A stretch of 6,611 bases of DNA. It comes from a virus (taxonomy: Duplodnaviria; Heunggongvirae; Uroviricota; Caudoviricetes). The DNA lies in IMG/VR virus record IMGVR_UViG_2744054854_000002; one strand, given 5' to 3'. The position numbers and the translations under genes are program-made. Under the pieces are notes generated by a model that made no database searches, was not told the DNA's origin, and saw only the letters and a list, made by a program, of their open reading frames with translations. Below are positions 4,490-6,611 of the stretch, one piece after another. Positions within the stretch are counted from its first letter, which is position 1. Each line of letters begins with the position of its first letter.

Positions 4490-5118
4490 AAACGCCCACC
4501 ATTCCCACCCTTCTGGGACCGGACGGCATGACATCGCTGCGTGAATATGCCGGTTATCACGGCGGTGGCAGCGGATTTGGTGGGCAGTTGCGGGCGTGGA
4601 ACCCACCGGGTGAAAGTGTGGATGCAGCCCTGCTGCCCAACTTTACCCGTGGCAATGCCCGCGCGGACGATCTGGTACGCAATAACGGCTATGCTGCCAA
4701 CGCCATCCAGCTGCATCAGGATCATATCGTCGGGTCTTTTTTCCGGCTCAGTCATCGCCCAAGCTGGCGCTATCTGGGCATCGGGGAGGAAGAAGCCCGT
4801 GCCTTTTCCCGCGAGGTTGAAGCGGCATGGAAAGAGTTTGCCGAGGACGACTGTTGCTGCATTGACGTTGAGCGAAAACGCACGTTCACCATGATGATTC
4901 GGGAAGGTGTGGCCATGCATGCCTTTAACGGTGAACTGTTCGTTCAGGCCACCTGGGATACCAGCCCGTCGCGACTGTTCCGGACACAGTTCCGGATGGT
5001 CAGTCCGAAGCGTATCAGCAACCCGAACAATACCGGCGACAGCCGGAACTGCCGTGCCGGTGTGCAGATTAATGACAGCGGCGCGGCGCTGGGATATTAC
5101 GTCAGCGAGGACGGCTAG
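4486..5118 (+). pseudogene. B: Portal protein gpB, 3'-truncated: 210 codons of the ~533 in lambda, ending at a junction-created TAG
   Basis: Track ORF 4486..5118; [36 protein letters not shown]...GYYVSEDG is colinear with the lambda gpB N-terminus. Lambda continues YPGWMPQKW after SEDG; here a TAG at 5116-5118 follows and downstream sequence is tail-fiber-like. Confidence 0.9.
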
Positions 5119-6611
5119 CGCCACGACGGCATCCACGAAGGCGACAGAGGCAGCTGGCAGTGCGACGGCAGCAGCTCAGAGCAAAAGTACGGCGGAATCT
5201 GCAGCAACGCGCGCTGAGACAGCGGCAAAACGGGCAGAGGATATTGCATCCGCCGTGGCGCTTGAGGATGCGAGCACGACGAAAAAGGGGATAGTACAGC
5301 TCAGCAGTGCGACCAACAGCACTTCCGAGTCACTGGCGGCAACGCCAAAAGCCGTTAAGGCCGCGTATGACCTGGCTAACGGGAAATACACCGCACAGGA
5401 TGCAACGACAGCACAGAAAGGGATAATCCAGCTAAGCAGCGCGACCAACAGCACGTCTGAAACGCTGGCGGCAACGCCAAAGGCAGTAAAAGCAGCCAAT
5501 GACAATGCTGAGAAACGTCTGCAGAAAGATCAGAACGGTGCGGATATCCCTGGCAAAGACACCTTTACGAAAAATATTGGTGCCTGCCGTGCCTTCGGTG
5601 GGTCAGTAAGCACAACAACAGGAAACTGGACGACTGCACAGTTTATCGAGTGGCTGGATTCTCAGGGAGCATTTAACCATCCATACTGGATGTGCAAGGG
5701 TTCCTGGTCTTATGGCAATAATAAAATCATTACTGATACTGGCTGCGGTAATATTCATCTCGCCGGAGCTGTCATTGAAGTAATGGGGATAAAGTCAGCG
5801 ATGACGATCCGCATTACCACACCGACCACCTCCACTGGTGGTGGAACAACTAACGCCCAGTTTACCTATATTAATCACGGAACAGATTATTCACCTGGCT
5901 GGCGAAGGGACTATAACTCCAGAAATAAGCCAACGGCATCAGAGATCGGGGCGTTACCGTCAGGTGGAACAGCAGTATCATCAGTTAATCTGTCTTCAAA
6001 AGGTCGGGTAACCGCGCTGACAGACAATACGCAGGGGGCAACAGGTCTTGAGTTATACGAGGTGTATAACAACGGATATCCAACAGCGTATGGAAATATC
6101 ATTCACCTGAAAGGGATGACAGCCGTTGGCGAAGGTGAGTTACTCATCGGCTGGAGTGGTACAAGCGGTGCTCATGCTCCGGCATTTATTCGTTCACGAC
6201 GGGATACGACCGACGCAAACTGGTCGCCGTGGGCGCAGCTTTACACCTCGGCTCATCCTCCTGCAGAGTTTTATCCAGTCGGTGCACCAATCCCGTGGCC
6301 ATCAGATACCGTTCCGTCTGGTTATGCCCTGATGCAGGGGCAGACTTTTGACAAATCTGCTTACCCGAAACTTGCAGCCGCTTATCCGTCAGGCGTGATC
6401 CCTGATATGCGTGGCTGGACGATTAAGGGCAAGCCCGCCAGTGATCGAGCCGTATTGTCTCAGGAACAGGACGGCATTAAATCACACACCCACAGCGCCA
6501 GCGTATCCAGTACGGATTTGGGGACGAAAACCACATCGTCGTTTGATTACGGCACTAAATCCACGAATAACACTGGTGCGCATACCCATAGTGTTAGCGG
6601 TACGGCTGCTT
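5072..6611 (+). CDS. stf: Side tail fiber (Stf-like) C-terminal portion, 5'-truncated by deletion. Tail-fiber similarity begins ~5117-5120; nearest in-frame ATG is 5072; reading frame runs off the window end
   Basis: The +1 frame relative to B is open from 4898 to the window end (my manual translation). It is absent from the track, presumably because no stop falls within the window. Translation from ~5117: [24 protein letters not shown]...[30 protein letters not shown]...[29 protein letters not shown]...[110 protein letters not shown]. Matches the lambda Stf mid-region and HxH-rich C-terminal region as recalled. May be a pseudogene if not translated. Confidence 0.8.
5285..5497 (+). repeat. 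Tandem in-frame duplication of the conserved tail-fiber motif (two ~81-bp copies, 132-bp period) inside stf
   Basis: Copy 1 at 5285-5365 encodes [27 protein letters not shown]; copy 2 at 5417-5497 encodes [27 protein letters not shown]. Nucleotide copies are similar but not identical. Lambda Stf, as I recall it, has one copy. Confidence 0.8.

Follow-up and report, generated by a model that had tools for sequence, protein, structure and literature searches.

An open frame across a portal gene-stfQ deletion junction in the Qin cryptic prophage of Escherichia coli as a probable deletion scar

The stretch of DNA analyzed here (the window, 6,611 nucleotides) carries a junction at which a truncated lambda-type portal gene B runs into the 3' part of the side tail fiber gene stfQ, the stf frame remaining open far back into B. 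We consider this arrangement to be a deletion scar in the Qin prophage without a selected function, with a probability of roughly 0.88. The overlap frame appears explained by the parental portal gene, which already contained the open run, the ATG codons and the SD-like element, without sign of selection. An earlier, sequence-only reading had suggested that late transcripts passing through Nu1-A-W-B could in principle yield a B-overlapping leader fused to the receptor-binding portion of Stf. Its description of the locus was borne out: B is truncated, a tail fiber fragment with the receptor-binding end lies in its +1 frame and the overlap is open, giving the 613-aa ORF of the automatic gene callers. 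The implication that the arrangement is meaningful found no support: the run and its starts are present already in intact portal genes, the leader is unconstrained and the junction is clonal, while the product would be devoid of the tail-attachment domain in a prophage devoid of tail genes. The kind of feature is already known, and the locus represents a further intermediate in the decay of a well-known cryptic prophage.

The gene order around the window identifies the locus as the Qin cryptic prophage of E. coli. Over its 3' third, the window matched E. coli 2018-10-1CC (NZ_AP021894.1) at 100%, and a second record of identical length matched equally; the whole window differed from NZ_AP021894.1 at four positions, the nearest sequence being a contig of GCA_023244395.1. 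The order of genes in NZ_AP021894.1 is cspI, ynfN (interrupted by IS3), gnsB, ydfO, ynfO, nohA, A, W and a portal pseudogene, followed by a tail protein, tfaQ (frameshifted), pinQ, ydfK, ynfT and ydfJ; the identification rests on this PGAP-annotated order and chromosomal position, compared with the K-12 region labelled 'cryptic prophage Qin'. The B remnant (B') has 97% identity to nt 2836-3464 of lambda B and is labelled by PGAP as a portal pseudogene without the C-terminus. E. coli ATCC 8739 has an essentially intact Qin, in which the portal measures 533 aa and Stf 1007 aa and the set of head and tail genes is complete; nohA, A, W, J, lom, tfaQ and pinQ are likewise present, and the parental order is nohA-A-W-B...J-lom-stf-tfaQ-pinQ. 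The coordinates of the features are collected in Table 1.

Table 1. Features of the window at and around the B'-'stfQ junction (positions are those of the whole window).
Feature	Position	Strand	Basis
nu1 (nohA), lambda-type	1841-2386		
A, lambda-type	2361-4286		
W, lambda-type	4283-4489		
B', lambda-type portal gene remnant: codons 1-210 plus a junction-made TAG stop	4486..5118	+	210-aa ORF
Tandem stops TGA TGA in the +1 frame, upstream bound of the open run	4892..4897	+	
Stop-free 'leader' of 73 codons in the B +1 frame, contiguous with the stf frame	4898..5116	+	
SD-like GGGAAGGTG (4901-4909), 9-nt spacer and ATG 4919; candidate 664-aa product	4901..4921	+	duplex energy
ATG picked by automatic gene callers (613-aa product), without SD	5072..5074	+	
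Deletion junction, TA common to both parents; B to the left, stf to the right	5116..5117	.	three-way alignment
TAG stop of B'	5116-5118		
'stfQ side tail fiber fragment, codon 410 of 1007 onward, continuing past the window end (stop at window-equivalent 6913)	5117..6611	+	
GAGGA (5237-5241), 13-nt spacer and GTG 5255, the PGAP start of the 552-aa 'phage tail protein' WP_001162608.1	5237..5257	+	

The junction was resolved by aligning the window with two parents, the intact ATCC 8739 prophage and, for B, the allele of E. coli 2017.10.01CC (...GACGGCTATCC...), which is identical to that of the window. The B sequence runs through 5117 and the stf sequence starts from 5116, so the two overlap in the dinucleotide TA alone, a 2-nt microhomology. 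Against ATCC 8739, the B region aligned up to 5114 (98.8% identity) and stf from 5100 (99.7%). A GGGTA microhomology combined with a point change at 5115, as derived from ATCC 8739 alone, was rejected since the 2017.10.01CC allele shows that the C is B-derived. Codon mapping places the join between B codon 210 and Stf codon 410 of 1007, with approximately 17,472 bp absent relative to ATCC 8739, comprising the head and tail genes, that is every gene from C to lom. The join put stf one base downstream of the B frame, which created the TAG ending B'. In one E. coli lineage, Qin would thus have lost about 17.5 kb, from B codon 211 to stfQ codon 409, probably by illegitimate recombination at the TA microhomology; the deletion would have cut into a +1 run of B that was already open for 116 codons, and the landing of the stf frame one base past the B frame would be a chance outcome of the join.

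The junction was present in two of 5,426 complete genomes, which probably represent one isolate given that both are 4,701,941 bp long, share identical match coordinates and have similar strain names. It was further found on seven contigs, and the four loci compared were 99.85-100% identical to the window, while an exact 40-nt junction pattern had no match in metagenome contigs. The junction is, by these matches, confined to one near-identical clone and, being clonal, offers no independent evolutionary replication. The B allele of the window, including ATG 4919 and GGGAAGGTG, occurred at 100% identity over 629 nt in at least 29 other E. coli records, and the one inspected among them (2017.10.01CC) had a full-length portal gene.

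Re-inspection of the overlap frame (frame 2, position mod 3 = 2) up to 6611 agreed with the earlier statement that the tail fiber frame has no stop from 4898 to the window end, and the two in-frame ATG codons, at 4919 and 5072, were located inside the B remnant as described. In-frame GTG codons are present at 4907, 4931, 5054 and 5060, with GTG 5255 lying downstream of the junction. The intact B genes of lambda, ATCC 8739 and 2017.10.01CC have the same +1 run, open for 116 codons (window-equivalent 4898-5245); in lambda and ATCC 8739, which differ from the window in having no deletion, it ends after these 116 codons and leads nowhere. The alignments therefore indicate that the open run predates the deletion and that the leader was neither created nor kept by the fusion: as the run was pre-existing in B, the stf frame reaches 73 codons back into B' and acquires starts that were already there. 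Runs of such length are not exceptional, the B +1 frame holding two of them (120 and 116 codons), and in these late genes 5.8-8.3% of the +1-frame positions are preceded by 73 or more codons without a stop. The number of ATG codons among the 73 leader codons was 2, compared to 1.4 expected. Between 4898 and 5114, the window differed from lambda by eight substitutions, seven of which are silent in B and all eight nonsynonymous in the +1 frame, and from ATCC 8739 by seven, all silent in B and all nonsynonymous in +1. A Pfam search with the 73-aa leader gave no match, and GC3 by frame was too flat to separate the frames. Judged by these substitution patterns, the leader behaves as an unconstrained, non-coding frame: of the properties expected from an overlapping gene, neither purifying selection on the +1 frame nor a length beyond chance and specific to the fusion was observed.

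Translation of this frame is nevertheless possible, and the energies calculated for its potential start sites point to ATG 4919 as the best candidate and to ATG 5072 as a poor one. The duplex of GGGAAGGTG with the anti-SD had an energy of -7.8 kcal/mol, which places it among the best 2.7% of the start triplets in the window (339 in total) and makes it stronger than the SDs of the genes Nu1, A, W and B, which ranged from -3.3 to -6.6 kcal/mol. Since this match exceeds those of genuine late genes, low-level translation is plausible, although the chance of one top-2.7% SD among approximately six starts is about 15%. The earlier remark that no strong SD precedes either ATG was thus correct for 5072 (-3.0 kcal/mol, the background median) and incorrect for 4919. 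ATG 4919 owes its origin to CAC>CAT, a change that is silent for a His codon of B; the place is ACG in lambda and ATCC 8739. The presence of the allele together with GGGAAGGTG in an intact portal gene means that this ATG also predates the deletion. ATG 5072 is ancestral, with an equivalent in the +1 frame of lambda B at lambda nt 3422. The local unfolding cost was 20.5 kcal/mol at ATG 4919 and 24.8 kcal/mol at ATG 5072 (third-highest of the candidates tested) compared to 10.6-14.0 kcal/mol at real starts, and the contexts of 4919, 5072 and 5255 were all more structured than those of the real starts; the SD and unfolding energies are, however, crude proxies, and ribosomes on B' would also remodel the local structure.

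Three starts were weighed on this basis, together with a route that needs none. Real, albeit fortuitous, initiation at ATG 4919, out of frame and internal to B', with the SD-like GGGAAGGUG as its driver and a 664-aa protein as its product whenever the Qin late genes are transcribed, is rather unlikely. Such a product would consist of a 66-aa leader rich in Arg, Ser, Pro and Cys and of Stf residues 410-1007, which TfaQ could fold into a soluble receptor-binding trimer in the sister isolates. In its favor are the duplex energy and spacer, the frame being open through to the stf stop, and an intact tfaQ on the sister contigs L007-L010. Against this, the site lies inside the translated B' in a costly structure and in an unconstrained leader, it is ACG in lambda and ATCC 8739, and in intact portal genes the same site would yield just a 109-aa junk peptide; moreover, the 664-aa product is not called in a collection of 15 billion proteins and tfaQ is broken in 2018-10-1CC. 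The use of GTG 5255, as in the PGAP model, would make the B-overlapping frame irrelevant; we find it doubtful, more so than initiation at 4919. It has a moderate SD (-5.8 kcal/mol) and the PGAP record to support it, but also a long spacer and a GTG start, and the 552-aa call, found on more than 220 blocks of the collection, was placed inside an intact full-length stf in six of the ten inspected contexts (seven when an IS1-interrupted copy is counted). The model is therefore largely a gene-caller split of the gene, and in the intact 1007-aa stf an artefact produced around an antisense ORF in an Ala/Ser/Thr-rich region. Initiation at ATG 5072, giving 613 aa with a 15-aa B-overlapping leader, possibly through reinitiation by ribosomes that end at the B' TAG 44 nt downstream, is improbable. 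The exact 613-aa protein is recorded from seven contigs, where automatic gene callers have chosen this start, and it is the ATG closest to the B' stop; yet it has no SD and the high unfolding cost given above, the ATG is ancestral in lambda B, and a start 44 nt ahead of the stop is distant for translational coupling by termination-reinitiation. Finally, a B'-Stf fusion made by programmed +1 ribosomal frameshifting or transcriptional slippage has next to no probability in our estimate: the +1 frame is indeed open for 73 codons ahead of the B' stop, but the 4898-5118 region has neither a homopolymer run of four or more nor an XXXYYYZ heptamer, and Rfam revealed no RNA family, including frameshift elements, in the window. 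This route was accordingly rejected.

Any of these starts depends on a transcript. No sigma-70-like internal promoter was detected in 4200-5600, and the sole promoter-like match upstream (10/12 at 1589-1616) is located before cos/nohA in a region with fewer hits than its shuffled versions. IS1 and IS3 are placed between the Q gene and nohA, and transcription of the junction would need Q-mediated readthrough across both. If Q-dependent late transcripts do reach the junction, fortuitous initiation may occur, most likely at ATG 4919 or GTG 5255, and the product would be without the N-terminal tail-attachment domain. Literature searches on stfQ gave no information on its translation start; the relevant papers name the gene as an example of pausing or as matching a putative crRNA.

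The DNA of the tail fiber fragment is 99.7% identical to the full-length stf of ATCC 8739, it keeps 598 Stf residues, and Pfam detected two Phage_fiber_2 domains (PF03406, E 1.4e-37) and a Collar domain (PF07484, E 3.7e-12). The tail-anchoring N-terminal domain PF08400 (phage_tail_N), which occupies residues 1-134 of the 1007-aa ATCC 8739 Stf (E 7.9e-72), was absent from the fragment in the same type of search. The fiber chaperone gene tfaQ is frameshifted in 2018-10-1CC, and intact (191 aa) on the junction-bearing sister contigs; GCA_023244395.1 also has an intact copy. Compared with a lambda-type Stf, the receptor-binding part is therefore present, while the N-terminal anchor, the tail genes and, in 2018-10-1CC, a working tfa are missing; in a prophage without tail genes, the product cannot act as a tail fiber for Qin.

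Comparable losses have occurred elsewhere. In the Qin of K-12, nohA and stfQ (b1547) are found in the same prophage and at the same chromosomal site (pinQ-tfaQ-stfQ, on the ydfJ side), also joined by a large deletion from the packaging/head genes to stf, so that the 3' part of stf forms an ORF that extends into the shortened gene before it: stfQ and nohA share 50 nt, and nohA gains an altered C-terminus. The K-12 deletion begins 9 nt into A, and stfQ consists of the GTG of A plus three codons joined in frame to Stf at about residue 708 (320 aa); as it begins with A's own GTG, a genuine initiation region was inherited. The window, in contrast, has its left end at B codon 210, an out-of-frame fusion, the 598 Stf residues and fortuitous starts only. 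An independent deletion with the right end inside stf is present in the Qin of 2017.10.01CC, which shares the B allele of the window but differs from it in having a full-length B and the left end in the tail gene Z, the Z ATG plus 29 codons being fused in frame to Stf at about residue 840. For lambda PaPa, Hendrix and Duda are said to have described in 1992 a stf frameshift (orf-401/orf-314) that separates the C-terminal Stf ORF from the attachment part, with loss of the side fibers; there the cause is reportedly a frameshift of 1 bp, the phage being complete in other respects, and not a multigene deletion. The lambda frameshift is also mentioned in PMC3945230. Several observations count against the scar reading: the SD at ATG 4919, the intact tfaQ in the junction-bearing sisters, and the in-frame fusions to genuine starts in K-12 and 2017.10.01CC.

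The pattern in K-12 (A) and 2017.10.01CC (Z) might point to selection in favor of the expression of Stf C-termini. In the corresponding reading, selection acts on cryptic-prophage deletions into stf and spares those that leave the receptor-binding C-terminal part translatable, either from an in-frame late-gene start or through an open SD-bearing leader, to the benefit of the host; we regard this as very improbable. If true, a tail-less soluble trimer of the Stf C-terminus would be made with TfaQ and would have a host-beneficial role, for example interference with other lambdoid phages or the supply, in trans, of fibers or receptor-binding modules to them. Among the independent stf junctions, two of three clear cases are in frame (two of four with L017 included), for which the probability by chance is about 0.26-0.41; the in-frame share is compatible with chance and the cases are few, so no conclusion on a bias is drawn. 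A further explanation, which we hold tentatively and at somewhat less than even odds, is that the 3' part of stf and tfaQ matter as DNA, forming a reservoir of homology on which infecting lambdoid phages can draw for tail fiber sequence. Lambda recombinants with the Qin stf/tfa region have been reported at approximately 2x10^-6 (De Paepe et al., 2014; PMC3945230), and stf at 99.7% identity is common to many prophages; however, this would be a consequence rather than a demonstrated selective reason for retention, and nothing in it is specific to 4898-5120. Such a reservoir is compatible with the deletion-scar explanation, and translation of the overlap frame is not needed for it. The wider question touched by the deletion scar is whether prophage relics keep Stf C-terminal fragments expressible, which is a matter for the population scale.

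For annotation, three models have been placed on this locus: a 613-aa protein beginning at ATG 5072, a 552-aa protein beginning at GTG 5255 and a 66-aa 'hypothetical protein' that spans the junction. All three are products of gene callers acting on a pseudogene, and B'-'stfQ deletion remnant is the most fitting label for the locus.

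The deletion in the Qin prophage of E. coli K-12 (NC_000913.3) has its left end 9 nt into the terminase gene A, whose GTG serves as the annotated stfQ start, so that stfQ consists of three A codons (V-N-I) joined in frame to the side tail fibre protein Stf at approximately residue 708, while nohA has a 189-aa form with a new C-terminus instead of the 181-aa Nu1 form. The Qin deletion in E. coli 2017.10.01CC (locus L006) is a third independent one: here the ATG plus 29 codons of the tail gene Z are joined in frame to Stf at about residue 840. This ATG is preceded by a good SD (AAAGGGGGATGT), and at the fusion PGAP called only a 182-aa "hypothetical protein" starting with a non-canonical ATC. 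Further internal deletions were present in A and in C of the same prophage. An additional independent deletion with its right end within stf was found at locus L017 (~3593–6000), a lambdoid relic that lies elsewhere on the chromosome, in the vicinity of dinI and prfC; in it, a protease (C-like) gene runs into stf at approximately residue 46, apparently out of frame.

The tail gene Z is frameshifted in the otherwise intact Qin-type prophage of E. coli ATCC 8739 (L003, 14222–14798), where the site reads CAGCAACGG in contrast to CAGCAAAACGG in 2017.10.01CC. Judging from this frameshift, the ATCC 8739 prophage is probably defective as well.

Gene calls around stf and the junction are listed in the table. 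WP_349626566.1, which begins with an ATA codon and is an Arg/Gln-rich, out-of-frame reading of stf, is almost certainly spurious. In the loci with intact full-length stf (L011–L015, L018 and L020), an antisense ORF was called repeatedly in the Ala/Ser/Thr-rich repeat region, after which the gene callers placed a new stf start on the GTG that corresponds to window position 5255; the 552-aa "phage tail protein" entry, which is widespread, arose from such calls.

Coordinates of features in the window and in related loci
Feature	Coordinates	Strand	Frame	Remarks
cosN	window 1652–1663			identical to cosN of lambda, GGGCGGCGACCT; upstream of nohA
WP_349626566.1	window 5094–5294	+	3	66-aa "hypothetical protein" (PGAP); spans the junction
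Antisense ORF	~5133–5870	-		245–355 aa; gene callers; L011–L015, L018, L020
stfQ/nohA overlap	L004 1635798–1635847			K-12, NC_000913.3
Z-stf fusion	L006 24610–25227			E. coli 2017.10.01CC

A sigma-70-like site (10/12 match, window 1589–1616) immediately precedes the cosN match. Although unable to make heads, the phage retains an intact cos region together with intact, full-length Nu1, A and W.

At the left end, positions 1 to ~95 of the window are the right terminus of the IS3 that interrupts ynfN, according to the annotation of NZ_AP021894.1, and the homology to the intact Qin-type prophage of ATCC 8739 begins only at position 96. Within gnsB (~426–599), the A run at 476–482 has seven residues versus eight in NZ_AP021894.1 and in the GCA_023244395.1 contig, which shifts the frame and leaves a 44-aa ORF (424–558) rather than 57 aa; this could be either a true mutation or a homopolymer sequencing error.
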